DNA of 64,000 nucleotides from a virus, in IMG/VR virus record IMGVR_UViG_3300017527_000160, positions 1-64,000 of that record. One strand, given 5' to 3'. Of the stretch, positions 26,095 through 64,000 are shown in pieces. Every line of letters begins with the position of its first letter. Position 1 is the first letter of the stretch. A model generated the notes under the pieces. The model worked only from the letters and a program-made list of their open reading frames with translations. It made no database searches and had not been told where the DNA came from. The position numbers were made by a program, and so were the translations under genes.

Positions 26095-26772
26095 ATGGCA
26101 ACTACTGTAGGACTATCAATATCAAGAGTACGTAACGTACTGAAGGCAGTGAAAGAGGATCCGTTTATGACGGACCGTTTTCTATATAGCCTTATCATGA
26201 AGTATGCAAAGACTTTGATAAAGCGTGAATCCAAGATGGAAAACATCTACAAGCATAAGAGCTTGTTCAGAGAACTACCGTGTGTAGAACTTATTGACGT
26301 AGATAAAGTGGAAGCTTGCTGTACAGGTATAACTACGGGCTGTACTATAAAGAGAAGTAAACATAAACTTCCTGAATTGCTATCGATTGACTCAGGTCCT
26401 GTCATCAGATCTGTATCGACATTAGACTACTCGCAAGATGCTCTGGATACTTTGCCGACACTGTATACCAACATGACTAAGACATCGACCTTTAAATATA
26501 ACAAGCAGAATTACTACTGGTTTTCAGAAGGATATTTATTCATCCCTAATGTAGAATGGGAAGCGGTAAGAGTGGACGGGGTATTCGATGAAGACATCTC
26601 GGGTTCTTTATGTAATGTTGATCCAACGGAGTGCACTACAGAACAGGACAGAGAGTTAGCTATTCCGGAACACCTGTTCTCTGAGATAGAACAAATGGTT
26701 TTAAAAGAAGTATTAACTGCTGGACAGATTCCTTCGGATGGAGCTGATGACGGACAAAATATAATGAGATAA
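26095..26772 (+). CDS. Tail ring/tubular protein
   Basis: RSKHKLP, YYWFSEGYLF and IPEHL..IEQMV motifs; synteny. Confidence 0.6.
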   Translation: MATTVGLSISRVRNVLKAVKEDPFMTDRFLYSLIMKYAKTLIKRESKMENIYKHKSLFRELPCVELIDVDKVEACCTGITTGCTIKRSKHKLPELLSIDSGPVIRSVSTLDYSQDALDTLPTLYTNMTKTSTFKYNKQNYYWFSEGYLFIPNVEWEAVRVDGVFDEDISGSLCNVDPTECTTEQDRELAIPEHLFSEIEQMVLKEVLTAGQIPSDGADDGQNIMR

Positions 26773-27770: not shown

Positions 27771-27772
27771 TT

Positions 27773-36171: not shown

Positions 36172-36176
36172 CCGGA

Positions 36177-36222
36177 TAAACCTCGTATATTTGACGGTTA
36201 TGTCGGAGAAATTTCTTATATT
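36177..36222 (+). promoter_or_regulatory. Putative promoter region of cargo genes
   Basis: TAAAC-N7-ATTTG dyad, TATATTTG at 36186-36193, and GTCGGAGAAATT..TATATT ending at 36222. Confidence 0.5.
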
Positions 36223-36234
36223 TAATATAATAGC

Positions 36235-38913: not shown

Positions 38914-38924
38914 AAGTAATAAGC

Positions 38925-44300: not shown

Positions 44301-44371
44301 CAGAACATGCTGCCTTAAACATGGCAGGTGAAGAACAGATTCGTTTAAATAATCAACATCAAAATCAATAA
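41324..44371 (+). CDS. Large helical internal virion (ejection) protein
   Basis: 1015 aa, coiled-coil rich, upstream of the giant cargo genes. Confidence 0.65.
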   Translation: MATYLQGVTDYIPQVQPFAPDFNFYAKSLQFSQGKHDAARKQLSNIYGSLLNAPLTREDNTEARDKFFKTIDQDIQKMAGMDLSLNQNVHAAKGVFNQMLDNKAIVKDMVWSKQWQGQMRKSQSFKNCVDPEKCGGAWWEGGDKALQYNRQEFMNASAEDAMGMGVQEFVSYQDVTKRALAMAKEADLNVSIDQVTGQWITTTKNGPQLIGKQLQSLFMGSIGKDPKVKQYYETKASNQRKDFMYGNKDQYGSLEAAEQAYLQEVTPTLEKYYGEKKVELEDAVAQNEKKVKKINEAIENAPADKRSEMEKLRDELQGRGKLYDSSLEDVTENEGQVAVAQRNQRYSGRQADAMLAGIDLHNEIGKAAEVMSYRNYEQSVAVNPYGMEAVQQRNRLKFEALKQHNRKELERYKLTAKGEYENMIATGGAEANNAQTITDVAGSSAVGNMDPASAEYKSRVMNQFSEERDEHRIDVSGNELSLIEQTLQHVTGAAEGGDAQAREDYVNIFNSFNAAVRSSEENVRENGAEWADTWNELDAMKLQQIALAVEKANTIDEKYAIAKQYKANWKDMVSGGQIDMFYEKGVMPLLDRNKGNDALRDYLSPVYALNQKSMLAIETKKKGLELMDSWVADNHESVMTGVNGDGRYTKMDRHALQSYVDDKGHVVPEDVFIANMMKKGYTEQQAVNKFRGDVESPYSGWLSRETQIGLDYVMGGFGESGQENAEKYLRQERLSKGRGIHSLWTEAFSQHANPEGDQAWLGLTGAGDLTAMGQRYSTVDPAQYKSIGTMGINGALNDALNSKNAIFRYGGFENTIQEDIADVRNLADQLRIDMGTMTNPKTVARPMLDVTSVQVAGGNSDYMAVNVKMSEMYRKKYKGSENSPGIMGQQLLSNEGFTMYIPKNEATNLFYTGSQKTVYEQAMNWKKEIPFDAYPNYFKDTKLTSTPSGAYKFAGYGKVTNEDGTTKWEYFQKEVPYSKDLNGIVDTYTKWQSEHAALNMAGEEQIRLNNQHQNQ

Positions 44372-44374: not shown

Positions 44375-47300
44375 ATGGCTGAAGAAAATAGCAGTACTCC
44401 TGTATCAGATCTGGATAATGTAGATTCAAGTAGTTTTTTACCTAAAGGTTTGCCGCCACTGGAAATGGATCCCGAGTTATCTTCTTACTTAGTAGAACAA
44501 GGGGTAATAGAAGCACCTACTGAACCTAGTGTTAAACCTGGTAGTGGTCAATCAATGCGTGATAGCTTGTTTGATTTTCAAACAGCTGACTTAGGTATTG
44601 CTACAGATCCATTCAAAATGGGTAAAGAGGTTCATGCTGATTTTCGTAACCCTCATAATCAGAATCAATTCTATGAAAGGTATGCTTCTCATAGTGAGTT
44701 TGAGAACTTAGGTTTCAATCCGTTCAGAGATAACGAAGCGCTGTATAATGAGAACTCTAATATGTTCGAGGAACTTGGTAGATCATTCGGTCAGTGGACT
44801 GGATTGGTAGGTCTTGGTTTCAAAGATGCTGCTGGCTTTGGGGATTTAACTGATAGAGATAATGCCGCAGAGATGGAACGTGCTATGGCTGTAGGTTCAT
44901 CTTCTAAAGGTGGTTTTACTGGTTTCACTAATAACTTATTTTTAAACTCAGGATACACTGTTGGTATTATGGGTGAGCTTGCTTTGGAAGAAGTAGGAAT
45001 GCTTGGTGTAGAAGCTGCTCTCGGTATAGGTACTGTAGCTACAGGTGGTGCTGCTGCTCCAGCATTAGCGGCAAACACTGGACTGATGGCTAGTAGAGCT
45101 GCCAGAGCTTTCGGTAAGATAAAGACCGCACTTGGTGCTAGTTACAGTTTGAGTAAACAGCTTGGTAATCTAAAAGACATTAACAAGGCTAGATCCATGT
45201 GGAGTAAAGGTCTTGGTAAAGCAGGAAAGATAATTAACCCTTTTGAAAATACTGTAGACCTTTATCGTAATAAAAGTAAACTGGATCATCTTAACAAATG
45301 GCAAAAGACATACAAAGGTTTTGCTGAGATGTATAAGGATGTTAGAAACTTCCGTTTGGCGTGGGGTGAAGGTGCTCTTGAAGGAGGTATGATTCAAAAT
45401 CAAATGGAGCGTGAACTCCTGGCTGATTTTAGAGCAGAGAATGGACGTGGTCCTAACGAAGAAGAAGGTCAGGAGATTATAGATACAGCAAGACGTGCGG
45501 GTGTTACAACATCTGTTATCAATATGCCAGTCATCATGCTGTCCAATAAACTTGTGTTTGATGGATTACTTGGTCGTGGTAGATTTAAAAATCTTTATGC
45601 TGATGTTATTGAGACAGGTCATGCAGGAAAAATAATATTTAAGCCGGGTGTTAAAGGAGCGAAAGCTTATAACAAAATGGCTACAGGTCTACAAGGTAGA
45701 TGGGACTATATAAAGAGCCCTCGAATGTGGGCTGCAGGTGCTGCGAAGTATGGTAAGGCAAACATTGCTGAAGGTCTTCAAGAGGTTTTTCAGGAAACGA
45801 TAACTGGTGCTTCTGAGGATTACTATGGTGCCATGTATAGAGGTGATGCTAATCGTGGCGGATATATGTCTTCTATAGTAGGTAATCTTGTTAAACAAGT
45901 AGGCCCGCAAGGTCTTGAGACTTTCATGTCAGGGTTCTTGATGGGAGGTATGGTTGGTCCTGTCTCTACTGGAGTGGGTAACATAACTCAAGCTATCGGT
46001 GGTAACTCAGCAGGTTTTGCTGACAGTCGTGCGGGTAAAATTGGTACTGCTATAGGTAACCAATTTACTAAGATGAGTAAGGGTCAAGAAGCTTATCAGA
46101 AAAAAGTAGATGAGCAGACGGATCAAGCTACTAAAAGAAATACAAAGCTTGAGAAAGATATAGAAACACTGAATGAGTTCTATGAAGATCCTACAAAATA
46201 CTTTTCACCTGAACTAGAAAACCTCGTATCGCAAAAGGCATACAAAGAAGCCATGGATGAGGCTGAAAAGAGAGGTGACAAAAGAATGTTCCATGATATG
46301 GCTGACAGTGCAGAGACCAAGCATGTCATGACAGCCTTGAAGTATGGTAGACTAGATGGTCATATCACTAGAATGGAAGAGATGAAACAGTTCAGTGCAG
46401 AAGAATTTAAAACTCTGAACACAGAACTATCTCAAGAAGACTTTAATTTTAAAATAGATGCTTCAATAGATCGTGCTAAGAAGATTCAATCTACTTGGGA
46501 CTATGCATCAAAGAAATTTCCAAATCCTTTTACTCCGTATAAATATAGACCTGGTACAGATAAGTTCAAGGAAGAAGCTATGAAACAAGTTGTTTGGAAT
46601 AATGCTATCGAAGAGATGGTGTTCCAACAAGAAAGTTTTAATAGAGCCCTAGAAAGACAACAGTCTATTTATCAAAACATACATGAAACTGCAGGTTTAA
46701 AGAAGATGTCTACTAGCGATATCAATGTATTGTTTGATGAGCAAAGTGTTTTAAGTGAGATAGGGCTTTTAAAAATGGAGCTGGAAGGTAACGAAAATAC
46801 TGTAGGATTAAAACAATCAGAAGCTTTGACACCTGATATGAAGCAGATGATTGCTAAGAAAGATGCTAAACTTAAAGCACTCGAAGCATATGATAAAGCT
46901 TTAAAAGAATTTAAAAGTTCTAAAACTGAAGAGGTTGATGAACCTACAGTTAATGCTTTACATAAAGCATATAAAGAGTACATGTCTGTTATGGCAGAGC
47001 AAAGTGGTGAACACCTTAATGTAGATAAGCTTGATGCTTCTTTCGAGGCTTTGGCTGATTCACATTTGTTAACGGCTAGAGCAGGTGATTTGAACAGAGC
47101 TGTTAATATCCTATCAGACCCTAAGAACTTTCTCTCAATGGTTGATAGAAAGAATGCTCGAATAAAAGTTCTTTATGATAATAGAGAGGTTGAAATAAGA
47201 AAATCATTAGAGGAGTTCAGAAAATTAGCTGAGAAAAATGAAATGCTTAACAGGCTATACGACGAAGGTATGTTCTTCGATCCTAAAGATCTTGCTCTAC

Positions 47301-49504
47301 TAGAGAGTGAAGGGAAGATGCCTGTAAACTTCTACTATGCTGATACAACAGATGGTCATAAGCAAGGTGAGGTTCTTAGAACATCTGCTGATTATGCTAA
47401 AGCTATTGGTATTGTAACCAAAGCTATGAAAGCTCAAGGTATTGATGTTGAGGATATCATCATAATGGAGCAGGATGCTAACGCATATACCTCACAGTCT
47501 CGTAGAAAATCAGCGGGTGATGCGAGAACGTATGTAGATCTAGCTCAAGAATTTGGTTTCGATCCAGAAAAGGATTCATCAGAAGTACCTCTAGTAGATG
47601 TACTGGAAGCAATTATTGCAAATGAACATGGGTACAATACTGAACATGAGATAGCATTAGCTCAACAGTTACTTAAGAAAGCGGATTCAAAAGAGACTGT
47701 AACATTCTCTAGGAAGGAGAAGACTCCAGGTGCATACACTTCTGCTGGTGCTGTAGTTGATCCACGATACAGTTCAGATGAATATCATCAAGGAAGAACC
47801 GGTCATCCTATCGAACATGTTATTCTCCATACTGAGATTAAACGTAGAGTCTTCGAGGCTACAAAAGGTGATGCTGATTTTAAGAAGAACATGACACGAC
47901 TTTGGACTGAAGCTCGTACAGCATACGCTGAGTTATCACCAGAAGCACAAGCTGCTATGGACGGTGTTACACTTGACCTATTCCAAAACCTAGATTCATT
48001 CATGGCAGCAGCTATGAGTAATCCTACGTTCCAAGAGTTCTTAGCTACAGTTCATACGAAAGTTGAGACTACAAAAAGCGTTTGGCAAAAATTCGTTGAC
48101 GCTATAATGGCTCACTTGAAAGGAGCTACATTAGGACACAACGGTACAGTATTGAATGCTGCTTTAGATTTAATAACAGCTAAGATCGAGGGTATTGGTG
48201 TTGCTCCAACTAAGACAGCAACAGAGGCAGAGACAACCACTGCTCCAACTAAAACTACAGCAGAGACTAAAGGTATCGTAGCTAATACAATGCCTCCTAG
48301 TCAGATGAAGAAGGATCATCCGGATCTATGGCAAACACTTGTTGATTTATACAAGGAACAGAATATCGATCTTATAAGTCAACCTGGTTCAATAGGTGAC
48401 GAGGCTTTACTTCCTGGTTTTGAATCTATGTCTGATGAAGAGATTGGTAAGTCTCCACAGTTTGCTGCATACATTAAAGGACCGTGGCCAAAAGCATCTG
48501 CTGCTATTTATTCATATAATAAATCATTGGTTAAGCCTACAGTTGAAGTTCCGTTAGGAAGTACTGAGGATGTGAGTAATGAGGAGATAGATGAGTTTAA
48601 GAAATCTAAATTTGTATCCCGTGCTCGAATAGTGAAGATGGCTGAGAAGCAGGAGAAAGGTACGCCTCACACTCTTCGTGAGAAGATGTTACTTAAAAAT
48701 GATATCGTTCGTGCTGGGGTTGAACACTACCTGGACACTAAAGCTAAAAAACCACCAACAATTGTTACCGGTGAAATGAAAGAGCAGTTACGTGAGTTAG
48801 GGTTCTCTGAGAATCAAATCAAAACGTTACATGCTAGACCTGAAGAAGCTTGGAGATTAATCAATGAGGGTATCACTAACGATGAACTTAACGCAACAGC
48901 TCAATCAGCTGCAGCGACACCGTCTACTTTGAATAAATCAGGCGAATTGTTTCATGCAGAAATGGGAGCTATCCTTGAAGGCATATACGATTATCAAACT
49001 CTTGAGCAGGCTGAACAAGAATTGGTTCACATCACAGAGACTCGTAGCGATGAGATGACTAATGCTGGTTTAACAGAAGAAGATTTTGAGGGTTGGATTG
49101 GAAAAGCCTTGCAAAGAATAGCATTTAATTTTACCTTTGAGGATATCCAAGTAGGAGAAGTTCTTATAATGGGTGGCGCATATAAAGTCCAATATAGAGT
49201 GGAACAAAAAAGCGGTAGTGAACTTTATGTAGAACCTGTTGCCGGTGGTAAAGGTACCTGGATAAAAAAGAACGAGATCCATGATAAAATTGAATACAGA
49301 TATAACATAGCTATGAATGATCCGAGAGTAAAGTTTGATGAATCAGAACCTGTTACAGAAGAGGAGAAAGTATTCGCTGAAGAAACTATGGAAGCTACTG
49401 TAGAAATCAATAGTGCGGAAGCTATTAAAGAGGATTTAGAACAAGCAGGCACCATGACTGCAGCTGAAAGAATGGCAAAACTCAAGAACAATAAAAAGTG
49501 TTAA
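44375..49504 (+). CDS. Giant cargo protein with Gly/Ala-rich membrane-like segments and a degenerate zincin-like domain
   Basis: 1709 aa; EGLQEVFQ motif, hydrophobic Gly-rich helices, HVILHTE..FMAAAMSNPTFQEFL; only Cys is the last residue. Confidence 0.7.
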   Translation: MAEENSSTPVSDLDNVDSSSFLPKGLPPLEMDPELSSYLVEQGVIEAPTEPSVKPGSGQSMRDSLFDFQTADLGIATDPFKMGKEVHADFRNPHNQNQFYERYASHSEFENLGFNPFRDNEALYNENSNMFEELGRSFGQWTGLVGLGFKDAAGFGDLTDRDNAAEMERAMAVGSSSKGGFTGFTNNLFLNSGYTVGIMGELALEEVGMLGVEAALGIGTVATGGAAAPALAANTGLMASRAARAFGKIKTALGASYSLSKQLGNLKDINKARSMWSKGLGKAGKIINPFENTVDLYRNKSKLDHLNKWQKTYKGFAEMYKDVRNFRLAWGEGALEGGMIQNQMERELLADFRAENGRGPNEEEGQEIIDTARRAGVTTSVINMPVIMLSNKLVFDGLLGRGRFKNLYADVIETGHAGKIIFKPGVKGAKAYNKMATGLQGRWDYIKSPRMWAAGAAKYGKANIAEGLQEVFQETITGASEDYYGAMYRGDANRGGYMSSIVGNLVKQVGPQGLETFMSGFLMGGMVGPVSTGVGNITQAIGGNSAGFADSRAGKIGTAIGNQFTKMSKGQEAYQKKVDEQTDQATKRNTKLEKDIETLNEFYEDPTKYFSPELENLVSQKAYKEAMDEAEKRGDKRMFHDMADSAETKHVMTALKYGRLDGHITRMEEMKQFSAEEFKTLNTELSQEDFNFKIDASIDRAKKIQSTWDYASKKFPNPFTPYKYRPGTDKFKEEAMKQVVWNNAIEEMVFQQESFNRALERQQSIYQNIHETAGLKKMSTSDINVLFDEQSVLSEIGLLKMELEGNENTVGLKQSEALTPDMKQMIAKKDAKLKALEAYDKALKEFKSSKTEEVDEPTVNALHKAYKEYMSVMAEQSGEHLNVDKLDASFEALADSHLLTARAGDLNRAVNILSDPKNFLSMVDRKNARIKVLYDNREVEIRKSLEEFRKLAEKNEMLNRLYDEGMFFDPKDLALLESEGKMPVNFYYADTTDGHKQGEVLRTSADYAKAIGIVTKAMKAQGIDVEDIIIMEQDANAYTSQSRRKSAGDARTYVDLAQEFGFDPEKDSSEVPLVDVLEAIIANEHGYNTEHEIALAQQLLKKADSKETVTFSRKEKTPGAYTSAGAVVDPRYSSDEYHQGRTGHPIEHVILHTEIKRRVFEATKGDADFKKNMTRLWTEARTAYAELSPEAQAAMDGVTLDLFQNLDSFMAAAMSNPTFQEFLATVHTKVETTKSVWQKFVDAIMAHLKGATLGHNGTVLNAALDLITAKIEGIGVAPTKTATEAETTTAPTKTTAETKGIVANTMPPSQMKKDHPDLWQTLVDLYKEQNIDLISQPGSIGDEALLPGFESMSDEEIGKSPQFAAYIKGPWPKASAAIYSYNKSLVKPTVEVPLGSTEDVSNEEIDEFKKSKFVSRARIVKMAEKQEKGTPHTLREKMLLKNDIVRAGVEHYLDTKAKKPPTIVTGEMKEQLRELGFSENQIKTLHARPEEAWRLINEGITNDELNATAQSAAATPSTLNKSGELFHAEMGAILEGIYDYQTLEQAEQELVHITETRSDEMTNAGLTEEDFEGWIGKALQRIAFNFTFEDIQVGEVLIMGGAYKVQYRVEQKSGSELYVEPVAGGKGTWIKKNEIHDKIEYRYNIAMNDPRVKFDESEPVTEEEKVFAEETMEATVEINSAEAIKEDLEQAGTMTAAERMAKLKNNKKC

Positions 49505-49508
49505 TACT

Positions 49509-52500
49509 ATGAAGTGTACAATTGTAGGAGCTAACCAACGCGATGTGCGTGTGGTTGTCGCAGGTGATATTTTCGATTTGATGAAAGCAGGTAAGCCTGT
49601 AGATGTGAAAGCATTGTCATTGAATATGTACAACGCAATGTACGACGCAGAACAAAAGAACAACACGGAAGCCTTAGCATATGCAAGGCTTGTTCCTTTT
49701 ATGGTGCAACAGTTAATGGGTGTTGATGCAACTATCTTAAAGCATGTTGTGGAATCAAAGGTGGATCTTGGTGAACTTGCCAATACACAGATTGCTGCTC
49801 AAGATGCTGAGACAGGTTTAAAGTATGTTGAAGAATGGTTAGGTGTTCGTGAGAATGGATTGAAAGAATCATTAGCTGCTGCTCAACCAAAGAAAGCAAA
49901 AAAAAAACCTGGTAGACAAGCAAAGCTTTTTGCTGATGAGGTTGTTAAGCTTGGTGATACTGTACAAATACTTAGTGGTAAAGGTAAAGGTGAGGTAGTT
50001 ACTGTTACTGAAGACCATGGTGATAAGGTAAGATTATCCAATGGTGTACTTAGAAAAAAGACTAGAGTTAAATTGAAGGCACAAACTTCTGTGCCTGTTG
50101 CTGCTCCTGTTAAATTAACAATTCGACAAAAAGTTATAAGAAGTTTAGAGCTTGACTTGAAGCAATCAGATGAGAGCAAGTTCCCAATGTCTGCTGCTGC
50201 AAGACGTAAAGTACAAGCTCAGTTGGATCAGTTGAAAGCTGAAGAAGCTGGTAAAGCGCCTGTCAAAAAGAAAGACGGTTGGTCAAGAGAAGATATCATG
50301 GAGGATGCTCATAATCAACATCAAGCTGGTGTTGATGATTGGTATGCTAATAAGAAAAAACAAATAGCTGAGGAAGAGGCTGTTCTATCAACTGGAAGCG
50401 AAAACTTAGAAACTGGCGCACCGGAAGGTGATCCTGGTGTAGGACCGACACCTATTTCTGTTGAAGAAGTTATGGCACTGCCTGTAGAGGAGTTCACTAG
50501 ATGGTTCATCACTCACGGATTAATAAGTGGGAACGAGACTGGTTTAAATCAACGCCCTTATATAGGTGGAAGATCGCCTGCTGATTTACGAGCTGTTGTT
50601 AATAGAATTAAATTGGGTAAGACTCATAAGAAGGATGGGACTATATTGAAAAGCGTAGCTGACTTCTATGCGGACATGGCTGAGATCCAAAAGAATAATG
50701 ATGAGTTCCCGATGATTAAAGGTACTGGTGGTAAGAATGATGGACGAACAGGTTCACCACCACTTAGTGCAATTATACAAAGTGGATTGGATATGGCCAA
50801 AGGTGGTCCAGTTGATGAAGTAGATGAGGATTCAAAAGAAGAGGTAACACCTAAACCACGTAATAAGAATTATTTACAAGGAGCACTTAAGAGTGTTATC
50901 GATGGTGTTGTGAAAGCTTTCAACGCTCATGCCCCATCATGGATGACTACATCTGGAAATGAGACTGGTTATAATGTGGGTGAAGTTAGTGCAAGGATAC
51001 CTACCGCAGCAAGTAAAGCAGCTTATGCTGCACAACGTACGATCTTAAGATTGATGGAAGATGGAAACATCCAAGACAGTAAAGATCTCAAAGTTAACGG
51101 TAGGACAGGTGTATTCTTGACTGCTAAGTTTGCTGACGGTCGTATCAGAATGACTCTTACAGATAAGAACGGTGATGCTATTTTATTTGACGGTAACGAT
51201 CAGCCTGCACTGGATGGTAATCCTAGAGAATATGGTATGCGTGCCGTAGACAAATTCTTCGATAAGGAAGGTAATGTGAAGACAACAGGGAAACGTTTCA
51301 ATGAGATGGTTGATGCTTTGATTAACGCTAAGCCTCACCTTACTAGAACAAGAGCTGTGAATATTCTTAAAGCAGAGGTTGAACATATCCAAGCTGTTAG
51401 AGAATACATCAATAAGGATCAAGAGAATAACTCTCTTGAATTTTCAATAAGCGGTGGTTCTCTTGGTTATATCCAAGTAGGATTTTCACCTAAAGAACTT
51501 ACATCAGTTAGTAAACTGAGCGATAAGGTTACAATGAAGCTGTCCACTAAAGCCGACAACATCGGTGAGGAAGGGCATGTGTATGCCACTTCGGATGAGA
51601 TGGAAGGTGACTGGATTCCTATCGAACGACCAGGTCTTAGAGATACACCTTTTGCTGATGTTGTTGAATCATTATTGTTTGATGAGAACTTAACAGATAA
51701 GGATGGTAAGCTCTTGAATGCTGTAGATAGAGCAAAGCACATAGATAAATATGTCGGTACGAACAAGGAGAGTGAGATACTATTTGATTATGATATCGGT
51801 ACTAAGAAAGTTAAACGACTTGTTATAGGTAATACTGTGATCATCGATGTTGAGAAAGGTATCAGAGATTTAGAGGTGGGTAAGATTGCTTATAAGCAGT
51901 TGTTAGCAAAGAATAACAAGGGTACTAGTTTCCCAACACTTAAGATGCATGTGAATGCAGATGCTTTAGCTAGAAGAGATTTCATGTCTGTAAGTATAGC
52001 GGACGGTGTTGTAACTACAGAAGGGAAAAATACCAGAGTGCATATGGCTGAGCAAGGGTTCATGATCCAGACCCCTGATGTTGCATCTGACGGTATGATC
52101 AGAAAGGTTAATGCATACTTCACTTTTAAGTTAAGTGAGAAAGGTGACCAAGCGTTAAATGGTAAAGCTGTTGCTGAAGAAGAAGCAAAGATTGCTGAAC
52201 AGAATACTGAAGAGATTGAAGAGAACGAGGATGATGCTTGGCAGAAAGCAATGGATGCTAAGATGAAAGCGCTTCAAGATAAAAACAAACCATTGGATGA
52301 AGATGAAGATGATCGTTTATTCAGAAGCTTGGATGTAAAGAATCAGAATCGAGCAGCTACTGCTGAACAGATAAAAGAAGCTAGAGACTGGTACGAGAAA
52401 CACCCTCTTAGTAAACACATTCCGTTCAAGACAATGTTTGAACAAATGAATAAGGATGGTGTTGCTCAATGGACTGTTGAAGGAATCACTTTATTTAAAG

Positions 52501-58500: not shown

Positions 58501-61364
58501 ACAGTACATTCGGTATGGCTCTTGGTACAACACCTACAATCGACGTTGTTGATGCTGAAGGTAATAGTAGAGTAGTTCCTGCGCCACAGATGGCTCAGTT
58601 CAAATCTAAAGGTAGAGTTTTATCACGTCACTTCCAAGGTGTTACTGATGGTACTCAGAGAACCATAAATGAACTTGGTAGAGAAAGGCAAGCGAATGCT
58701 AATGATTATAAAGGTAGAACTAAATTTGATAAAGAAGAGTTAAAGAAAGCTGCTAAAAGTAAAATGGGTGCTCGTGAAATCACTGAATTCGATAAGGATG
58801 TGTTTGTTCACTTCCTTGAGATAGAGAACATGAGTAAAGCTGTTAAGGATATGAAGATGAGAACTAATGTGGATACATCGAAAGATGCTACATTGTTCGA
58901 GGCTCAGGATAGAATTACTATGATTGAACAGATCAAGAGAGACGGTAAGTTCCCTGCAGAGATGGTTGATAAGATCCGAGTGGATTCACCTATCGCTAGT
59001 TTCTTTATACAAGACTTCCAAATCGATTTACTTGGCGATGCGTTTCCACTAAGGAACCATGAGGTAATTAACAACTTCATCCAAGGTGTTGAGTTCGACG
59101 ATTGGAAAAACACTTATGGTCTAAAAGATAAAGCAATCATCAACTGGAAATCAGATATGATAAACTATATCTTCCAGAATGAACTTAAGTATTTTGATGT
59201 CGATAAGATAACTCACTATAAAGGTAGAAGATTAACTTCAAGAACAGCTGCTCAAGCAACTAGTAAGGTTAACTTAGGTACTGAAACAGCTCCTAAAAGT
59301 GGTAATGTAATAATTGATGCAGTTAAAGGTAGAGAACCTCAACCTGGAGCAATAACAGCATTCAGAACTAAAGGTAAAACAGAGCAAAATATGATCGATG
59401 CTCTTAAGGATGATGCTGTTGGAAATCCTTTTGGTCCTTATGGGGCTATAAAAGAAGAGACTGCTGTATCAGTTACTAGATTCTTAGATTGGTTAGAAGG
59501 TAAAGCAGATACAAATGTAATGCAAGATTATAGAAATGCAATTCTTGCTAAACAAAATGAATTAGCTAATAAAGACATTTATTACTATAAAGATTTAAGC
59601 AGACCTTCTCATGCTACAGCTTTAGATTACTTTTTAAATAAATCAACACAACAAACCAGTGATGCCGGAATGGCTGTTGAAGATGTATTCTTAACTAGAC
59701 ATGGTGCGTATGCCAAAGACGGGAAGATGTATATTGATAAAGCTCAGTTAAAAACTGACTTTGCTAATAAAACTTATACGCAAAAGCCTATCACTCAAGA
59801 AGAATATGCTAAAGAAACACACGAAGCTGTATCTCAAGGTGAGACACCTACACACATGCGTCTTACTGCACCAGTATCAAACTTGGCGTTTAGTACAGAG
59901 AATGAGTATATCCAGTTTGTGATGGAAAGAGAATCTTTGAGAGAGGCGAGACCTTTATCTAAGTTACTAAGTTCGGAAAAAGATTGGAGTGAATCAAACT
60001 CAAAGTTTAAAGCAGTTGTTGATCGCTTCATGTATGAGAACAAGATCAAGGTGGGTCAAAGTAAAGACGCACATGCTGAATGGGTTGTGGCTATGGCTTA
60101 TGAAGTTTATCTTAGAGATGTCGCATTGGCTAGAACTAATAACCACTGGCACATGTTCCGTGGTGAAGACACATATGCTCATGAGTTTGCTAGAATCAAA
60201 CGTAACTATCCTGTTTTATCAACGCATTTTTCTTTGATGAATGCTCTTGATTTTAAAGGGAGTATGGGATGGAAAAACCTTGCACTGAATCAAAGTGAAC
60301 TTGATGGTGATCAGACTAATGTGTTACATGAGAACTTACAAGACTTAGCTGACAGCAGTAAACTACAAGAGCTTCTACCAGAGGCTTCTCAAATGGAGAT
60401 CGATGAGATCAAAGAACATTTTGAGAACTTCCATACAGTAGCATTCTTGCAATCAGGTATGAGTCAGGGTAGTCGATTCTCAATGACTCAGTTTGTATCG
60501 CAAGATCAGATGATAAGGTTGATGGAGAAACCTCTACAAAATCTTAACACGTTACTCGCAAGTAACAACCCGCTTAAGCAAGTGTTCTTAGAGGAGTATC
60601 ATCATAGATGGGTGCAGCAGAATTCCGCTGCTAGTAGAAACACAAGAATTCGTGGTAAGAATATGAATAACAATGTTACATTATTAGATAGTAACACGAT
60701 TGGTCAAGGTGTTCAGACTACTGAACCAGCTCAACAAAGAATAACAACTATCGGGGCTCAACCGGCTTTGATCAGTGAGCGAGGTTACTCTGGGTTTAAT
60801 ATCTCACAAACAAATGCTGAGAAGTATTTAGAGAAGTATCCTAATTTTACTTTCGTATATGATTTTGCTATCGATAATCAAATGGGTGCTGCAGGGGCTA
60901 ACAGTAACAGAAACTTTCACGGTAAAGGTCCTAACGCAATAGGTCTCCCTACATTGTTTAAGTATTCACCTGGTAATGATAAAACCGGAACACGACCTGA
61001 TCTCATAAGAGATGTTGACGGGAAGGTGAGTGACAAAGTGAAGGAAGTTATTGATCATGCTATCGATCAGATGGTAGATAATATGAACAGCGGACAGACG
61101 TTGCAATTCGATAGAGAAGGATACGGTCAGTATATGATTGAATCAAAAGACGGTGCTCCTCGTTTAGCACCTCAAACTTTCTTATATTTGTCGAAGCAGT
61201 TGCTTGAAAGAGTTCAGTTCGTTAACCCTGGTTATTTGAAAACTCAATCAGGTAAGGTGGCGACACAAGCAGGTCAAGCGGTCACTGATGCTTCTATCTG
61301 GCAAGAGGTTCAGAATGAAATGAGTGATGATGCAGTGAGAGATTTTATAAAACAATGTCTATAA
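49509..61364 (+). CDS. Virion-packaged double-psi beta-barrel RNA polymerase polyprotein with zincin, KOW and accessory domains
   Basis: RIPVQGLNSM and GADFDVDK (about 57135-57270) catalytic motifs; DAQG and ESGSKVG beta-like motifs; HEAWH zincin at 52524-52538 with downstream EEHLAE. Confidence 0.85.
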   Translation: MKCTIVGANQRDVRVVVAGDIFDLMKAGKPVDVKALSLNMYNAMYDAEQKNNTEALAYARLVPFMVQQLMGVDATILKHVVESKVDLGELANTQIAAQDAETGLKYVEEWLGVRENGLKESLAAAQPKKAKKKPGRQAKLFADEVVKLGDTVQILSGKGKGEVVTVTEDHGDKVRLSNGVLRKKTRVKLKAQTSVPVAAPVKLTIRQKVIRSLELDLKQSDESKFPMSAAARRKVQAQLDQLKAEEAGKAPVKKKDGWSREDIMEDAHNQHQAGVDDWYANKKKQIAEEEAVLSTGSENLETGAPEGDPGVGPTPISVEEVMALPVEEFTRWFITHGLISGNETGLNQRPYIGGRSPADLRAVVNRIKLGKTHKKDGTILKSVADFYADMAEIQKNNDEFPMIKGTGGKNDGRTGSPPLSAIIQSGLDMAKGGPVDEVDEDSKEEVTPKPRNKNYLQGALKSVIDGVVKAFNAHAPSWMTTSGNETGYNVGEVSARIPTAASKAAYAAQRTILRLMEDGNIQDSKDLKVNGRTGVFLTAKFADGRIRMTLTDKNGDAILFDGNDQPALDGNPREYGMRAVDKFFDKEGNVKTTGKRFNEMVDALINAKPHLTRTRAVNILKAEVEHIQAVREYINKDQENNSLEFSISGGSLGYIQVGFSPKELTSVSKLSDKVTMKLSTKADNIGEEGHVYATSDEMEGDWIPIERPGLRDTPFADVVESLLFDENLTDKDGKLLNAVDRAKHIDKYVGTNKESEILFDYDIGTKKVKRLVIGNTVIIDVEKGIRDLEVGKIAYKQLLAKNNKGTSFPTLKMHVNADALARRDFMSVSIADGVVTTEGKNTRVHMAEQGFMIQTPDVASDGMIRKVNAYFTFKLSEKGDQALNGKAVAEEEAKIAEQNTEEIEENEDDAWQKAMDAKMKALQDKNKPLDEDEDDRLFRSLDVKNQNRAATAEQIKEARDWYEKHPLSKHIPFKTMFEQMNKDGVAQWTVEGITLFKGADYSDLYHEAWHGFTQTMLTKQQKTDLYKELGRKVGSFKDYNGRMVSFAAANEKQLEEHLAEEFRSFMLKGKKATTAGPKQLSFFKKILAILKALFNNSHIDQVIMDAKFDSKVSELFEKMRVGNLAGYTFSQANANFGKLNQGITAIPGNEIKEGVESLNYQTSAELNNMMDAYLAEYVTVMNQGLDSAGQARVKKLNTELQDTENLNQAEQKAKRDELDALLNNDAASYKYSSLIVSDPDVLTTGYFYAQGKFQRLKASLSAKVKKETDPVQKASDLKDLKMIEFALDQFGNIDDIYSNQSADGTVAYGLIGYHMQRSKLFQDSRPTQEEIADEQKGPVAKRAFDRAGNESSLKEMASAEILYLLKTLPQVEKNDEGEWVPVTNRFDVNELAPFQTTWNRMVRATENIQDFDQMYDKLQEEAVKFPVLEELLKRMGDPHSSKVNTEHTLWTQLFKTFSKSRVPLIQMTVEQQGRGVNVKWEARVGEAFNADYAIGRQWQSMFTGAEPSEFIKNTIEGNYMDLAAIIKKFPHHSAASANPFEFFHAIGMPLSDNPEIRNELKANLGTYGPGHFHDEIMKLKGAGTRVERLDQITEEVNGRYKDLMKLEARYSDVFSSFMVTNAEGNTQFEHTLNNSMTMMVNAVNNSIDYNDMVSKPHLAHLDINKNPFAKSSLWLKAMFNLDGSPDINSIGKDGKSNHNPNYGERRVTKSGDFVTLRLTNLSGVLAKTMGDETGTGVSSAGADEYSKLIMDLQLSYSGMPELMRHADKGTSFTITIDGPLDIDSQPTDNYVPIGDFAAGGRFREKTVDRLSPHIVAEMSRMRILRGMTNMDGTPKMDVPFDVDYIMNGQQFVAFEDVLSDGTKAALKKIAFSEENIEDAVEAMRETINADLTKYFDKQYEEVNKKFDDAFFLADNIQEDMSRKGITGNKREAAIRSYVHNSWIHNIESIAVIYGDLAQYNHAKEGFHKRNAGGGSTGDIYRYDKTMAKNINDNYYKSSYAAKHANRLGITERRYFGGTMSTAIIEDQEIRSVYMDEYEEAFGEDAYKLGNYAKQNEGDAQGLITFDSYRELKVAEGTWSNEQDALFKKIVNGEKVSSRDVAQFFPVIKAQYWGPLANDTALPVMAFHKYSLFPMTPSVIKGKKMEKLHDKMVKEGIGYVTFESGSKVGTISKTAKVKKNEKTGEIEKVSRGYDKVYTEGEALDPNIMDPKMEDADGNYVEHFTKNDIHLHYLKNQLEIHDERKGNVIFSTQLRKLIEDGLMANGVPSDFMMKESLGGSKVVAERKAEWAKIEAKWDTMSPEAQQKTSKKYGLLKDYEKNINRLTQYAKEKLLEEINWQEIVDPKTGEKSLKGDMKNLLELVRSELVRQDLGQHSIDFIQTNTDGTIKHDLSLSLNVEQIEKLLNAMMVKKLIKQKVNGEGLIQVAATLMEDMAAEQGRDFRNPTEEDLAKWGSKDLPHYRPNQGPNGETTAAKVKVALAGDFRHLLKMTSVQELAKEQRIIDIAKAKGGSWTAAHVALNELIKDEEWLNEGRNREMVSMIGVRIPVQGLNSMEFMEVYEFLPEEAGSVIVPPTEIVTKSGADFDVDKMTVMMPNILSLNGSVELATSDLATKPKETLKEERDALVQKISDIREEHKEARKDKETRFTAEEREILDDTKSRIRDEQRKIKSLKKQWLDTSRQYKSPRVIKRMKALEESIDAAQFKKMSLEETEDMYYNTLPGDRLKHILSEPQAELAIIRRQLASLTDKPIQNDIMNSIRAVLELPDNFKPLVMPNSTELLTGQDNDGLAQEMEPHVVDTNKFDNVHSTKRYQGPKGDRISATRVLEVGYNLEKHMKNAIGKQTLALGAVDNTYNTLFNRIGAYMNPRVHSEAQYDAARRQEKKDKKKLTQKQKDVLKEYSEQRIMLNHNTMDIEGSDAISLSHINDAAGTPISDVVNQLINGWVDIAADAFVFNLQGNKEISPVLLFMVQAGVPIDEAVYFVSNPLVREYVKEQKLANSTFGMALGTTPTIDVVDAEGNSRVVPAPQMAQFKSKGRVLSRHFQGVTDGTQRTINELGRERQANANDYKGRTKFDKEELKKAAKSKMGAREITEFDKDVFVHFLEIENMSKAVKDMKMRTNVDTSKDATLFEAQDRITMIEQIKRDGKFPAEMVDKIRVDSPIASFFIQDFQIDLLGDAFPLRNHEVINNFIQGVEFDDWKNTYGLKDKAIINWKSDMINYIFQNELKYFDVDKITHYKGRRLTSRTAAQATSKVNLGTETAPKSGNVIIDAVKGREPQPGAITAFRTKGKTEQNMIDALKDDAVGNPFGPYGAIKEETAVSVTRFLDWLEGKADTNVMQDYRNAILAKQNELANKDIYYYKDLSRPSHATALDYFLNKSTQQTSDAGMAVEDVFLTRHGAYAKDGKMYIDKAQLKTDFANKTYTQKPITQEEYAKETHEAVSQGETPTHMRLTAPVSNLAFSTENEYIQFVMERESLREARPLSKLLSSEKDWSESNSKFKAVVDRFMYENKIKVGQSKDAHAEWVVAMAYEVYLRDVALARTNNHWHMFRGEDTYAHEFARIKRNYPVLSTHFSLMNALDFKGSMGWKNLALNQSELDGDQTNVLHENLQDLADSSKLQELLPEASQMEIDEIKEHFENFHTVAFLQSGMSQGSRFSMTQFVSQDQMIRLMEKPLQNLNTLLASNNPLKQVFLEEYHHRWVQQNSAASRNTRIRGKNMNNNVTLLDSNTIGQGVQTTEPAQQRITTIGAQPALISERGYSGFNISQTNAEKYLEKYPNFTFVYDFAIDNQMGAAGANSNRNFHGKGPNAIGLPTLFKYSPGNDKTGTRPDLIRDVDGKVSDKVKEVIDHAIDQMVDNMNSGQTLQFDREGYGQYMIESKDGAPRLAPQTFLYLSKQLLERVQFVNPGYLKTQSGKVATQAGQAVTDASIWQEVQNEMSDDAVRDFIKQCL

Positions 61365-61373
61365 TATAACAGT

Positions 61374-64000
61374 ATGTCTAGTTGTCCAAATAAAAGTTTT
61401 AAAACAGATAGTAACCAAGAGAAGAGCGACTGGGCTCTTTTAGAAGAAGGTGTAGGTTACTTTGAAGCAATGCGTGATTACCTTGAAACAGGTGGTGAAA
61501 TCAGAACACCTGAACAGGTTAAAGATAAGCTTGCCATGAGGAAAGAAGTACCAGGATCTGCAATGAGCCCTGAATCAACAATTCCTTCAGGTGAATTCAC
61601 TCTTGCTGATATAGCTAATGATCAACTTAAACAGACTGAGGACTTCGGTATAAACACTGATCAGTTAAAATCTACTAGAGCAATCGAGCTAGCAAACAAA
61701 ATGTCTGCTGCTTTAGGTATCCAGTATGAGTTGGTTACTGCGCAACAGGCGGCACTGATCACACAGAATGCTAAGAACCCATGGAATGGAGAAGGAGCTT
61801 TCTTTGTTGGTGGTAAGGTTTACTTTATCCAAGAGAAGATGACCAGTGACATGGTGTTGCATGAGTTCGCACACCCGCTGGTTCGAGTAATCTCTAAAGA
61901 AAACCCTGCACTATTTGATAAGCTTTATAACGACATAGCTAATACAACAGAGGGACAGGAAGTAATACAAGCAGTGACCGATCACTATAAAGCGCTTGAA
62001 CCTGGTTCAGCATACTTTAAGGAAGAGGTAATTGTAAAAGTACTGGAGAAGCATGGGGCACAAAAACTATCGAAGGAAAAGGTTCAGGGACCGTTTGCAA
62101 AAGCTATTGCTGAATTCCTATTTGCGATTAAACAACTTCTACGTAAGAGGTTCGGTAAGCATATCAAAATTTCTAAACTTTCTACAGACACTTCTTTAGA
62201 TGAGTTAGCTGACATACTTACTGCTGGAGATAAGATCTCTATTGATACTGAGTTGATTTCTGAGGAGGACATCGTAGCGTATAACAAAGAGGCAGAAGCT
62301 GAGGTGAACAATGATTTGAATACTGTTCGTAATCAGGACATCCAAGCTACGGTGAATGATTTCTACGATAAGATCACGGATCATATGCAGGAGTTGATGC
62401 ATAATGAGAACTATGCTGAGTTAGCGGATGTTCTAGTAGACAGCAACCAGGTTAAGATGTACCAAGCAATGAAGGGTAATCTTAAACCTCATCATAAGGC
62501 AATGATGAGTAAAGCTAACGCAACTCTGGAATCTGCTGAGGAGAGTAGAAAAAGGGTGAATGCCTTGACAAATACTTTGTTCCGTTTAGAGGATGTGATG
62601 AAGAAGATGTATGAGCATACTAAAGATATTGCTACTTATCCAGATACACAGGATAACATGCAGAAGGCTTATTACTACAAGAAGTTTACAGATCACTGGC
62701 AAGAGTTCATGACTGACTTGAAAAATACGTTGGAGAATGAAGCCAACGGTGTTGATTCAAGATCGGAGATAGTAGCCCTAGTGAATGCTATAGAATCAGA
62801 TATTAGTAAGACCGGTAAGATAATCGATAAGATGTATGCCGACGGATCAAGAGATGCTTTATACGAACAACTAGTTCCTATGAATAGAGCCATCTCTGAA
62901 AGATATGAAGAGCGTATAGCTAACTTGAGAGAGAAGGGTGCATCTCCAGAACGTATAGATAAAGTATTTACAGAGTATCATGGTGTCAACCAAGCTGACA
63001 AGAAGATCATGGATACTTTAACTGCCAAGTATAAGGCAGGTACTATAACTACTACTGAACAGAATACACTTGATCAACTCGTAGTAAAAGGAAAGAAAGG
63101 ATTATCTATCAGTAAGGATAAGATAGAACTACTACTGAAAGGTAGAATGGGTGATGCTAACTGGTTTAGTTCATACCTAGAAGGATACTTATATAACTCT
63201 GACCCTATTGTGGGTGGTTTGGCTTTGTTTGTTAAGAATGCTACGAACGATGTGATGATAGTAGCGCAACAAAAATACAATGACTTCGCCAATGATATCA
63301 GAGATGACCTTAAGGCTGCGGGATACAATCCAAACCGTGTAGGTAAACTTGGTAAGGACGTGGGTCGTAAAGATAAAATTGCACGTATCAATGAGGAAGG
63401 TATCCTTGAAGAAGCTGAGGTATGGTCTTTCAAACAAGAGTTTGGTAATGGTTTCCGTTATGACCAAGATGCTCTCAAGAAGACAATGCAGTTAGCTGAG
63501 GAAGCTCATGAGACTAACAATACACCTGAGACTAAAGCGGCTTTTATAAAGGCTGAGAAAGAGTATAAGAAATTTGAGCGTGACTATATGCATCAACAAT
63601 TCACTGATGCATACTATGCTCGTGAGGAGCTGTTTGAAGATGACCCGGTCGGGGAAGCTGCTGGTTTCGCTAGGAGAGAAATACTAGATGATATGCAAGA
63701 GCTTACCTCTCACGCTAAGACTCAGTCTGACCACCTAGAGATTGCCGATGAGCTTGATGCTATATGGCGTAAGTATCGTTTACTGCATAGTAACTATGAC
63801 CACAACGGTAAGCTCAAGACTGGTGATGATTTGGAAATAGCTAAGAGACTTCGTACTTATAGACAAGAGTCACAAGAGCTGCACGAGTATACTGTAAGAA
63901 AGGGTGCGTTCGAGAATGCATACTTTAACTTTCAACAGGAACTTAGAAATCAAAACATAGAAGAGAATACTACCGATCCTGAGTCTGAGTGGAACAAGAA
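61374..64000 (+). CDS. Giant cargo protein with zincin HExxH, 3' partial (not in ORF track)
   Basis: ATG 61374 (MSSCPNKSF...); I translated it with no stop to the window end; VLHEFAHP, with HEFAH at 61860-61874. Confidence 0.9.
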   Translation, partial: MSSCPNKSFKTDSNQEKSDWALLEEGVGYFEAMRDYLETGGEIRTPEQVKDKLAMRKEVPGSAMSPESTIPSGEFTLADIANDQLKQTEDFGINTDQLKSTRAIELANKMSAALGIQYELVTAQQAALITQNAKNPWNGEGAFFVGGKVYFIQEKMTSDMVLHEFAHPLVRVISKENPALFDKLYNDIANTTEGQEVIQAVTDHYKALEPGSAYFKEEVIVKVLEKHGAQKLSKEKVQGPFAKAIAEFLFAIKQLLRKRFGKHIKISKLSTDTSLDELADILTAGDKISIDTELISEEDIVAYNKEAEAEVNNDLNTVRNQDIQATVNDFYDKITDHMQELMHNENYAELADVLVDSNQVKMYQAMKGNLKPHHKAMMSKANATLESAEESRKRVNALTNTLFRLEDVMKKMYEHTKDIATYPDTQDNMQKAYYYKKFTDHWQEFMTDLKNTLENEANGVDSRSEIVALVNAIESDISKTGKIIDKMYADGSRDALYEQLVPMNRAISERYEERIANLREKGASPERIDKVFTEYHGVNQADKKIMDTLTAKYKAGTITTTEQNTLDQLVVKGKKGLSISKDKIELLLKGRMGDANWFSSYLEGYLYNSDPIVGGLALFVKNATNDVMIVAQQKYNDFANDIRDDLKAAGYNPNRVGKLGKDVGRKDKIARINEEGILEEAEVWSFKQEFGNGFRYDQDALKKTMQLAEEAHETNNTPETKAAFIKAEKEYKKFERDYMHQQFTDAYYAREELFEDDPVGEAAGFARREILDDMQELTSHAKTQSDHLEIADELDAIWRKYRLLHSNYDHNGKLKTGDDLEIAKRLRTYRQESQELHEYTVRKGAFENAYFNFQQELRNQNIEENTTDPESEWNK

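Follow-up and report, generated by a model that had tools for sequence, protein, structure and literature searches.

Why would three consecutive giant proteins of one virus contain almost no cysteine except at the termini that face one another? No phages of the human gut are more abundant than crassviruses, and how they pass megadaltons of protein, a ready-made RNA polymerase included, down a narrow tail is an open question (crAss001 atlas, PMC10172136; 2026 N4 paper). The window analysed here comprises 64,000 nucleotides, positions 1 to 64,000 of the IMG/VR virus record IMGVR_UViG_3300017527_000160, and its last third encodes three giants, here called P1, the RNAP giant and P3 (Table 1). Their genes sit after those for terminase, portal, major head and structural proteins, and this synteny suggests that the RNAP giant of this phage travels inside the virion and is ejected on infection.

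Table 1. Giant cargo genes, their cysteine codons and selected motifs (positions in the window unless stated otherwise)
Feature	Position	Strand	Remarks
P1 cargo protein, 1709 aa	44375..49504	+	ORF; sole Cys is the last residue
P1 Cys1709 codon TGT	49499..49501	+	C-terminal half of junction 1
RNAP giant, 3951 aa	49509..61364	+	Cys at residues 3 and 3950 only
RNAP Cys3 codon TGT	49515..49517	+	N-terminal half of junction 1
HExxH (H1006, E1007, H1010), zincin-like module inside RNAP	52524..52538	+	invariant in 25 relatives
DFDVD catalytic motif, D2582/D2584/D2586	57252..57266	+	invariant in 25 relatives
RNAP C-terminal arm; predicted terminal helix ends at Cys3950	61278..61361	+	AF2 model
RNAP Cys3950 codon TGT	61356..61358	+	C-terminal half of junction 2
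P3, 1967 aa	61374..64000, ending at 67277 of genome contig	+	sole Cys is residue 4
P3 Cys4 codon TGT	61383..61385	+	N-terminal half of junction 2
P3 HExxH (H163, E164, H167), predicted zincin-like metallopeptidase domain	61860..61874	+	invariant in 39 relatives (alignment A2)

Rechecking of the reading frames and codons showed that the cysteine positions given in the first-pass annotation were exact, and reading on into the genome contig extended the cysteine-free remainder that it had reported for P3 to all 1967 residues. Together the three proteins contain four cysteines in 7,627 residues (0.05%), against about 106 expected from the 1.39% found in the other 67 open reading frames of the same genome. 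Were four cysteines placed at random, all would fall no more than four residues from the four facing termini with a probability of about 2e-11. A frequency so far under the genome mean is like that of cysteine-suppressed ejection proteins. The tail proteins, which had been described as cysteine-rich, indeed reached 3.1% across the tail block (16971-33469), and the portal and other virion proteins of this genome also contain cysteine. No Pfam or PHROGs match was obtained for P1, the RNAP giant, P3 or four upstream proteins, and neither the three giants nor a 1015-aa protein showed a strong transmembrane segment when scanned simply for hydropathy. A DUF4326-like insert that had been proposed within the RNAP giant was not borne out, Pfam being empty for residues 3130-3300; a sub-threshold Pfam match to DUF7831 was located near the C-terminus.

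By its sequence, the RNAP giant is identified as a two-barrel virion RNA polymerase, the same type as phi14:2 gp66. A phmmer search matched its residues 2528-2619 to phi14:2 gp66 (PDB 6VR4 chain A, E 7.5e-21), and tblastn matched the RNA polymerase genes of phi14:2, crAss001, crAss002, IAS and p-crAssphage-like records. Neither a megablast search of GenBank phages with the RNAP region nor tblastn with P3 produced a match.

When cysteines were counted by position in relatives, they were found to be terminal and not randomly placed in some 300 homologues from the databases (22-87% identity), in 80 IMG/VR loci and in the cultured phages phi14:2, crAss001 and crAss002. All 85 RNAP homologues carried a cysteine within six residues of the C-terminus and 75 carried one at residues 3-6, the other ten being 5′-truncated or alternative-start calls, or long forms that include at least one P1-RNAP fusion. 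Exactly one cysteine, no more than nine residues from the C-terminus, was present in 93 of 97 P1 homologues, while a cysteine at residues 2-6 was present in 116 of 120 P3 homologues, 107 of which had no other. The corresponding columns were invariant in the alignments of the RNAP giant (A1; C3 and C3950), P3 (A2; C4 together with P5) and P1 (A3; C1709). The 80 IMG/VR loci, which were found by an alignment-based scan, provided 210 distinct proteins with 536,175 residues and 304 cysteines (273 terminal and 31 internal), and internal cysteine amounted to 0.003-0.013% in the P1, RNAP and P3 families. Single-protein IMG/VR scans using the C-terminal parts of the RNAP giant and of P1, or P0085, returned no relatives. 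At the outer ends of the chain, the N-terminus of P1 and the C-terminus of P3, a cysteine was never observed among the homologues or the IMG/VR loci.

The terminal cysteines were invariant while the remaining sequence had diverged to 20-30% identity. Both TGT and TGC were used to encode them, their position drifted over 1-10 residues, and the reading frames at the junctions (median gap 2-3 nt) were spread over all three, which argues that selection acts on the protein. The spread of frames is also the ground on which a polyprotein made by read-through or frameshifting was rejected as a general mechanism.

The number of cysteines was two, four or six where there were one, two or three junctions. 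In L057 the RNAP is split into proteins of 602 aa (Cys 3 and 601) and 2440 aa (Cys 4 and 2438) with a new pair at the break, and in L059 a split of P3 is likewise accompanied by a new pair. In L016 a further gene stands between RNAP and P3, and its 754-aa product has cysteines exactly at residues 3 and 752; each inserted or split member of the chain is thus equipped at both ends. In L096 there is a split, again with a new pair, whereas its relatives L089 and L094 are fused and lack the pair, all three loci having been matched by one query (64% and 92% identity). Fusions of P1 to RNAP were found in three lineages (L089/L094, cr1_1 gp076 and cr108_1), and in these the cysteines of the fused junction are absent while the RNAP/P3 pair is retained. 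Two apparent splits without a pair proved to be a group I intron (cr108_1; RF00028, 80 bits) and a single in-frame TAA (L053). Taken together, these comparisons strongly support the view that the cysteines at facing termini act as pairs joining consecutive proteins.

The cultured phages phi14:2 and crAss001 share this module of three proteins, its RNAP and its cysteine rule, and their cargo proteins have been found in virions by mass spectrometry (PMC10172136; bioRxiv 10.1101/2020.03.07.982082). The counterparts, in the order phi14:2 then crAss001, are gp67 and gp47 for P1 (by position), gp66 and gp50 for RNAP, and gp65 and gp49 for P3. HMMs of P1 and P3 did not detect their counterparts in cultured gut crassviruses or phi14:2, so these equivalences are based on size, on position and on a small number of blastp links. 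In phi14:2, cysteines occupy residue 1797 of 1797 in gp67, residues 3 and 2179 of 2180 in gp66, and residue 3 in gp65; in crAss001, they lie three residues from the end of gp47, at residue 5 and nine from the end of gp50, and at residue 5 of gp49.

The break between P1 and RNAP is located elsewhere in crAss001 and phi14:2 than in this phage: in crAss001 it follows a YHEAxH motif at the C-terminal end of gp47, whereas here it precedes the HExxH, which lies inside the RNAP. The P1 gene of crAss001 and of IAS virus lies on the opposite strand, yet its product still ends in cysteine, and Intestiviridae have a single break with a single pair at that break. The cysteine pairs are thus independent of both gene adjacency and domain layout. 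The purge of other cysteines is relaxed in gut lineages, with ten in the RNAP of IAS virus and eight in that of p-crAssphage, so internal cysteines are tolerated by some crassviruses. We found no published description of a terminal-cysteine chain in Crassvirales; neither 'cysteine' nor 'disulfide' occurs in the gp66 preprint (bioRxiv 10.1101/2020.03.07.982082), and the term cysteine does not appear in the crAss001 paper (PMC10172136). The latter describes inter-protein disulfides between tail hub and ring proteins of crAss001 virions, and the cargo is not resolved in its cryo-EM map.

In the AF2 model of the last 300 residues of the RNAP giant, a domain with pLDDT >90 precedes a terminal helix (model residues 277-298, pLDDT 55-59) that ends at Cys3950 and is predicted not to pack on its own domain. 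Residue frequencies defined the family motif at this C-terminus as V(-7), D/E(-5), F(-4), M(-3), K(-2), C(0). P3 begins with an MxxCPN leader followed by the zincin-like domain; in its N-terminal model (pLDDT 81.5), Cys4 is carried on a coil leader (pLDDT 61-67) ahead of the confident domain, and E is common at position +7. No conserved His or second Cys was detected within eight residues of the terminal cysteines. Residues 94-265 of P3 aligned to the catalytic domain of anthrax lethal factor with a Z of 7.8, which is below 8 (rmsd 4.2, 150 residues aligned), to PPEP-2/3 with Z 5.7-6.2 and to M1 aminopeptidases with Z ~4.5. Foldseek gave no match of the P3 N-terminal model to PDB at E <= 0.001, and the zincin-like domain had no Pfam match.

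A structural precedent for the signature is provided by cyanopodophage A4, where cryo-EM shows a disulfide between Cys1715 and Cys5 connecting gp27 to gp26, with the C-terminal helix of gp27 inserted into gp26 (PNAS 2025, PMC12002296). These are consecutive giant ejection proteins inside the capsid with the same terminal-cysteine signature as here: in Anabaena phage A-4L (NC_024358), the sole cysteine of gp27 (1717 aa) is residue 1715 and that of gp26 (1114 aa) is residue 5. The predicted RNAP arm helix ending at a cysteine resembles the C-terminal helix of gp27. By analogy with A4, the signature can therefore be a real disulfide. Profiles of P1 (A3) and P3 (A2) had no significant match among PDB sequences, A4 gp27 and gp26 included, so on sequence evidence the precedent is one of analogy, not homology. 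In A4 a single link joins two proteins and there is no RNA polymerase, whereas here two to three links would follow in series; moreover, the A4 paper treats the bond as a stabilising detail, whereas in the crassviruses it would be a family-wide rule, with gain and loss accompanying splits and fusions.

On the strength of these sequence patterns and the A4 analogy, we think it probable, with considerable room for doubt, that head-to-tail disulfides between proteins create a post-translational polyprotein that is threaded in order and released by reduction. Consecutive proteins would first dock noncovalently through the C-terminal amphipathic arm helix and the flexible N-terminal leader (MxC[SA][LI] or MxxCPN), and the disulfide would close after the particle exits the reducing cytoplasm. 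In the mature particle, P1 Cys1709 would be bonded to RNAP Cys3 and RNAP Cys3950 to P3 Cys4, joining all 7,627 residues covalently into a single unbranched chain. To travel down the tail channel the cargo must lose at least part of its fold, and a tether would outlast unfolding with the chain still threadable only if it were covalent and located at the extreme ends. Such a tether would hold the proteins together and in order through packaging and ejection, until thiol reductants of the host cytoplasm set the RNA polymerase free. Purging the other cysteines would prevent wrong or branching links. Assembly in a reducing cytoplasm and the anoxic habitat of gut crassviruses count against the disulfide reading. 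The motifs at the two junctions of the L096 clade are nearly identical, so docking specificity may be insufficient by itself to enforce the order.

The first-pass annotation had proposed a train of this kind, linked by disulfides or a shared metal. The pairing across facing termini on which it depended stands, being near-universal, gained at breaks and absent at fusions, and A4 offers a precedent; the disulfide nature of the link in this phage, as opposed to some other thiol-based link, threading, fixed order and reductive release we infer from sequence and analogy. Its claim of an internal cysteine purge proved real, but the rationale of avoiding mis-linking has a rival in Schitoviridae, where cysteine suppression in the ejection proteins (N4 gp50-52, DEV gp71-73) is attributed to passage through the oxidising periplasm (PMC11445570). 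Those proteins share the near-total lack of cysteine but miss the terminal ones too, whereas here there is one per facing end. Fused P1-RNAP or RNAP-P3 crassvirus forms and the N4 vRNAP (3,500 aa, NTD-RNAP-CTD) package and deliver cargo of the same kind, in each case as one continuous thread held by peptide bonds. Unlike these, the proposed link would be reversible and reduced on arrival, making a protease unnecessary. How these three proteins of crassviruses correspond to the NTD, core and CTD of N4 is a question raised in the 2026 N4 paper.

The same disulfides might instead only staple a folded cargo core, the pre-ejectosome, within the capsid for stability or stoichiometry, with no role in threading or ordering; the proteins would then exit one by one, or only after the bond had broken. 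This is how the A4 authors see Cys1715-Cys5, as stabilising a 'mortise-and-tenon' pre-ejectosome (PMC12002296). A staple could, however, occupy any site at an interface, whereas the cysteines lie within ten residues of a terminus in about 480 proteins and are re-created exactly at the new termini after splits, and fused and split forms substitute for each other. Terminal placement and the replacement of split by fused forms are better accounted for by linear covalent continuity than by a surface staple, which we regard as unlikely though deserving of attention.

It is improbable, in our view, that the facing thiols bind a shared metal such as Zn, or another bridging group, in place of forming a disulfide. 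Two zincin-like HExxH modules do occur within the chain, and carboxylates often occur close to two of the ends, with D/E at position -5 in the RNAP C-terminus and E at position +7 in P3. Each junction nevertheless supplies just two thiols with no further conserved ligand (His or Cys) nearby, the cysteines come as two, four or six according to the number of junctions and not in fours, a metal bridge would be labile after unfolding, and the solved case, A4, is a disulfide.

From sequence, heterotypic pairs are indistinguishable from other pairings of the same thiols. Homodimers (P1-P1, P3-P3 or RNAP polymers), an intramolecular RNAP N-to-C loop combined with a bond between P1 and P3, or attachment to portal or capsid proteins could be imagined; several such schemes satisfy the parity, and the portal and other virion proteins do have cysteines to offer. 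We consider these pairings quite improbable: P1-RNAP fusions lose just the two facing cysteines and keep the other pair, which would call for re-wiring, the cysteine-free outer ends are not predicted by homotypic or capsid links, and inserted or split members are equipped at both ends.

In MMP pro-domains, a cysteine switch keeps the protease latent. An N-terminal cysteine could similarly cap the zinc of the zincin, the other terminal cysteines being unrelated, and P3 Cys4 is indeed followed, some 160 residues on, by an invariant HExxH within a zincin-like fold, with a further HExxH in the RNAP. We find this hard to credit, as it leaves the C-terminal cysteines of P1 and RNAP and the new pairs at splits unexplained. 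In addition, the second ORF of L096 begins MxxCPN, yet its match to the RNAP profile starts at about position 939, presumably downstream of the HExxH; the zincin of Intestiviridae adjoins the C-terminal cysteine instead; and the AF2 model of the P3 leader is a loose, undocked coil.

General cysteine avoidance, with the terminal residues as leftovers or by-products of a nucleotide signal at the tightly packed junctions, has a published parallel in the cysteine suppression of Schitoviridae ejection proteins (PMC11445570) but is effectively refuted by the conservation data, since N4-type proteins lack even terminal cysteines (PMC11445570) and those of crassviruses stay invariant in diverged proteins, with either codon and at variable positions, and persist with genes on opposite strands.

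Returning to the disulfide chain, a more tentative extension, which we put forward as possible, is that a terminal cysteine pair and its docking motifs form a portable 'clasp', with protein order setting the order of delivery and the host's reducing cytoplasm undoing the link. Crassviruses could then freely cut, join or lengthen a virtual polyprotein, since a clasp at each end would make any protein a link of one threadable chain. The L096 junction, which looks copied from the RNAP/P3 junction, and the two-clasp protein of L016 would then be examples of modular evolution. A tether released by redox would, if true, represent a new principle of ordered viral protein delivery and a possible design for engineered cargo, and since the rule can be read from sequence, it opens direct experiments on two cultured phages. 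Annotators can use it to choose true start codons, to separate real splits from introns or sequencing errors, and to recognise new cargo proteins. A minor observation concerns crAss002 gp33 and the p-crAssphage RNAP, whose true start is most likely MSC.

The window corresponds to the structural arm of a crAss-like phage with a ~100 kb genome; terminase, portal, major head and virion structural genes were recognised in it using PHROGs. A Cys-rich tail block is followed by a series of large genes whose products contain little Cys and which ends with the giants P1, RNAP and P3. Sequence identifies the RNAP giant as the virion RNA polymerase, with a match to phi14:2 gp66, whose structure is solved (6VR4, E 7.5e-21), and a DFDVD motif (residues 2582-2586) that is invariant in an alignment of relatives. 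P3 carries an invariant HExxH motif (residues 163-167), and its residues 94-265 have a predicted fold like zincin peptidase catalytic domains (Z 5.7-7.8); a second invariant HExxH is found in the RNAP giant (residues 1006-1010). The public protein collection holds a 3757-aa RNAP call (P0004) that starts 194 codons downstream. The longer open reading frame is favoured because its MxC N-terminus is conserved and the gap to P1 is 4 nt.

Positions of features in the window and in relatives' loci
Sequence	Positions	Strand	Feature	Detail
Window	16971-33469		Tail block	3.1% Cys
Window	16971-27770	+	Tail genes	3.4-9% Cys per protein
Window	33469-41270	+	Proteins of 900, 892 and 781 aa	Cys-poor
Window	41324-44371	+	1015-aa protein directly upstream of P1	Only two Cys, residues 128 and 134 (C-x5-C)
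Window	44375-49504	+	P1	1709 aa
Window	49509-61364	+	RNAP giant	3951 aa; middle giant
Window	49509-50090		RNAP N-terminal stretch outside the P0004 call	
Window and genome contig	61374-67277 (end on genome contig)	+	P3	1967 aa
L096	16005-16090		New junction	
L096	22455-22540		RNAP/P3 junction	
L003 (cr108_1)	21790-22108		Group I intron in RNAP gene	
L053	13100-13190		In-frame TAA in RNAP gene	
L006 (IAS virus)	14129-23111		RNAP annotated as two overlapping CDSs	
L097 (crAss002)	13657-13760		Annotated RNAP start and in-frame MSC	
L005 (CrAssphage ZA)	15774-15850		Annotated RNAP start and in-frame MSC	

Together the three giants contain 4 Cys in 7,627 residues, all encoded by TGT. P1 ends in its Cys (Cys1709), RNAP has Cys3 and the penultimate Cys3950, and P3 has Cys4. 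At the Cys content of the rest of the genome (1.39%) ~106 would be expected, and the chance of four randomly placed Cys all lying within 4 residues of the four facing ends is ~2e-11. The first-pass annotation had described cysteines confined to the facing termini, and its reading frames, residue positions and TGT coordinates were all reproduced; its side remark that a DUF4326-like insert had lost the Cys typical of that family was not confirmed. The tail genes are in sharp contrast to the cargo genes, and their Cys richness is consistent with widespread disulfide bonds or metal binding in external tail parts.

Homologs were gathered from a large protein collection (85 RNAP, 97 P1 and 120 P3; 22-87% identity). 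A Cys within 6 residues of the C-terminus was present in 85/85 RNAPs and one at residues 3-6 in 75/85, the other ten being six truncated or alternative-start calls and four long forms. P0086, a database RNAP lacking the N-terminal Cys, was revealed by a P1 profile match as a P1-RNAP fusion. P1 had exactly one Cys, within 9 residues of the end, in 93 of 97 homologs, and P3 had a Cys at residues 2-6, within a conserved MxxCPN leader, in 116 of 120 (the sole Cys in 107). The four terminal Cys were invariant columns in alignments with a mean column identity of just 19-44%. An alignment-based scan of IMG/VR yielded 80 loci, whose proteins were scored with HMMs of the P1, RNAP and P3 families. Here, 210 distinct proteins (536,175 residues) contained 304 Cys, 273 terminal and 31 internal, and none was ever found at the outer chain ends (P1 N-terminus or P3 C-terminus). 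Counting Cys by position in orthologs, a check proposed in the first-pass annotation, thus shows the pattern to be a family-wide rule, with terminal Cys kept and internal Cys rare. In the IMG/VR loci both TGT and TGC occur, 1-10 residues from the end, indicating selection on the protein rather than on a nucleotide signal. Junctions occupy all three reading frames, ruling out a read-through polyprotein as a general mechanism.

Cultured and named phages were compared with this pattern. In Cellulophaga phage phi14:2, the sole Cys of gp67 (P1 counterpart, 1797 aa) is its last residue, the RNAP gp66 (2180 aa) has Cys3 and Cys2179, and gp65 (P3 counterpart) has a sole Cys at residue 3. In crAss001, the sole Cys of gp47 is 3 residues from the end, gp50 (2412 aa) has Cys5, Cys1334 and Cys2404, and the sole Cys of gp49 is at residue 5. 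Because gp47 lies on the strand opposite gp50-gp49, gene adjacency is not the cause. P1 and P3 were equated with gut-phage proteins on the basis of position and partial similarity. Terminal Cys are kept at breaks in IAS virus, crAss002, a p-crAssphage-like genome, cr1_1 and cr108_1, in some of which the internal-Cys purge is relaxed. The annotated RNAP starts of crAss002 and CrAssphage ZA lie ~20-32 codons upstream of an in-frame MSC, whose Met is probably the true start given the terminal-Cys rule. In the IAS virus RNAP, gp055 has Cys5 and, four residues from the C-terminus, a further Cys; gp056 lacks an N-terminal Cys, and ambiguous bases lie near both ends. This may be a genuine split, and so an exception to the rule, or an artefact of a frameshift. 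No description of terminal cysteines in Crassvirales cargo proteins was found in the phi14:2 gp66 preprint, the crAss001 paper or a wider literature search.

Rearranged loci link the cysteines to the breaks between polypeptides. At L057 the RNAP is encoded by two genes and the new ends each carry a Cys (602 aa, Cys 3/601; 2440 aa, Cys 4/2438), and at L059 P3 is likewise divided between two genes, with a new Cys pair. At L016 an additional gene separates RNAP from P3; the only two Cys of its 754-aa product are residue 3 and one 3 residues from the end. P1-RNAP fusions without a junction Cys occur in three separate lineages (L089/L094; cr1_1 gp076; cr108_1 gp054+gp053), all retaining the RNAP/P3 Cys pair; the only Cys of the L089 and L094 fusions (~4,150 aa) lies at the C-terminus that faces P3. 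L096, a relative retrieved by the same query (64% identity to it, versus 92% for L089 and L094), is split, with a new Cys pair at the split. This junction is like the RNAP/P3 junction of L096 in DNA: both have a C-terminal KCKG, a stop and then MxxCPNI...PEW, which suggests a copied junction cassette. In cr108_1 (NC_055878) a group I intron (RF00028, 80 bits, E 1.6e-20) sits exactly between the annotated CDSs gp054 and gp053, recorded as two hypothetical proteins, and at L053 the RNAP gene is interrupted by a lone in-frame TAA, which may reflect a sequencing error, a pseudogene or stop-codon recoding. Neither site has a Cys pair, and in both the polypeptide is presumably continuous. The breaks also shift relative to domains: the YHEAxH motif, inside the RNAP giant in the window, is found in crAss001 at the C-terminal end of gp47. 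In Intestiviridae P1 is followed by a fused P3-type zincin and RNAP by the C-terminal part of P3, leaving one break, which bears the single Cys pair. The Cys pairs therefore follow breaks, not particular domains.

A precedent exists in cyanopodophage A4, where cryo-EM of the capsid pre-ejectosome revealed a disulfide between gp27 Cys1715 and gp26 Cys5 and the insertion of the C-terminal helix of gp27 into gp26 (PMC12002296). In the A-4L genome these are the sole Cys of gp27 (1717 aa) and gp26 (1114 aa), the same signature as in the crass giants, so in at least one phage this signature does correspond to a genuine head-to-tail disulfide. Profile searches found no sequence similarity of P1 and P3 to A4 gp27 and gp26, and A4 is therefore an analogy. 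Cys suppression in ejected proteins has been published for N4-like phages (PMC11445570), which share the scarcity but do not keep the terminal Cys. Inter-protein disulfides connect tail hub and ring proteins in crAss001 particles (PMC10172136). Recombinant phi14:2 gp66 was purified and assayed alone for transcription in DTT-containing buffers (bioRxiv 10.1101/2020.03.07.982082).

The most economical reading is that each facing Cys pair forms a disulfide, which would make the cargo proteins one linear covalent chain. The disulfide would stand in, reversibly, for the peptide bond of fused relatives. A link at the extreme ends that is rebuilt at every new break suggests that linear continuity is important, as it would be if partly unfolded proteins had to pass the tail in succession, and release by cytoplasmic reductants is plausible. 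Among the rivals, only a purely structural staple inside the capsid is not weighed against by the fusions and splits. These data do weigh against a metal bridge between the facing thiols; moreover, family residue frequencies revealed no conserved His or second Cys within 8 residues of any terminal Cys, and Cys number is 2, 4 or 6 for one, two or three junctions, arguing against a classical metal site. Pairing of these thiols in other ways and a cysteine switch for the zincins are disfavoured by the same fusions and splits, as are neutral leftovers.

In the RNAP C-terminal motif V(-7), F(-4), M(-3) and C(0) share one helix face. An AlphaFold model places the last 22 residues in a low-confidence helix ending at the Cys, after a very confident domain, suggesting that this C-terminus would behave as a free arm. 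The P3 leader with Cys4 is modelled as a coil, predicted with intermediate confidence, that precedes a confidently modelled domain.

The four proteins upstream of P1 have 0.2% Cys overall. Those of 900, 892 and 781 aa had no match in Pfam or PHROG; the first has a Cys pair (295/302), the second four clustered Cys (residues 13, 16, 47 and 57; CxxC plus two) and the third none. Homologs of the 1015-aa protein, with an MATYIxG N-terminus, are encoded in many IMG/VR loci and have the Cys pair at 128/134, at 128/131 or 128/133 (two loci), or no Cys. The pair may close a small disulfide loop or bind a metal, in what would be a further Cys-poor cargo protein.
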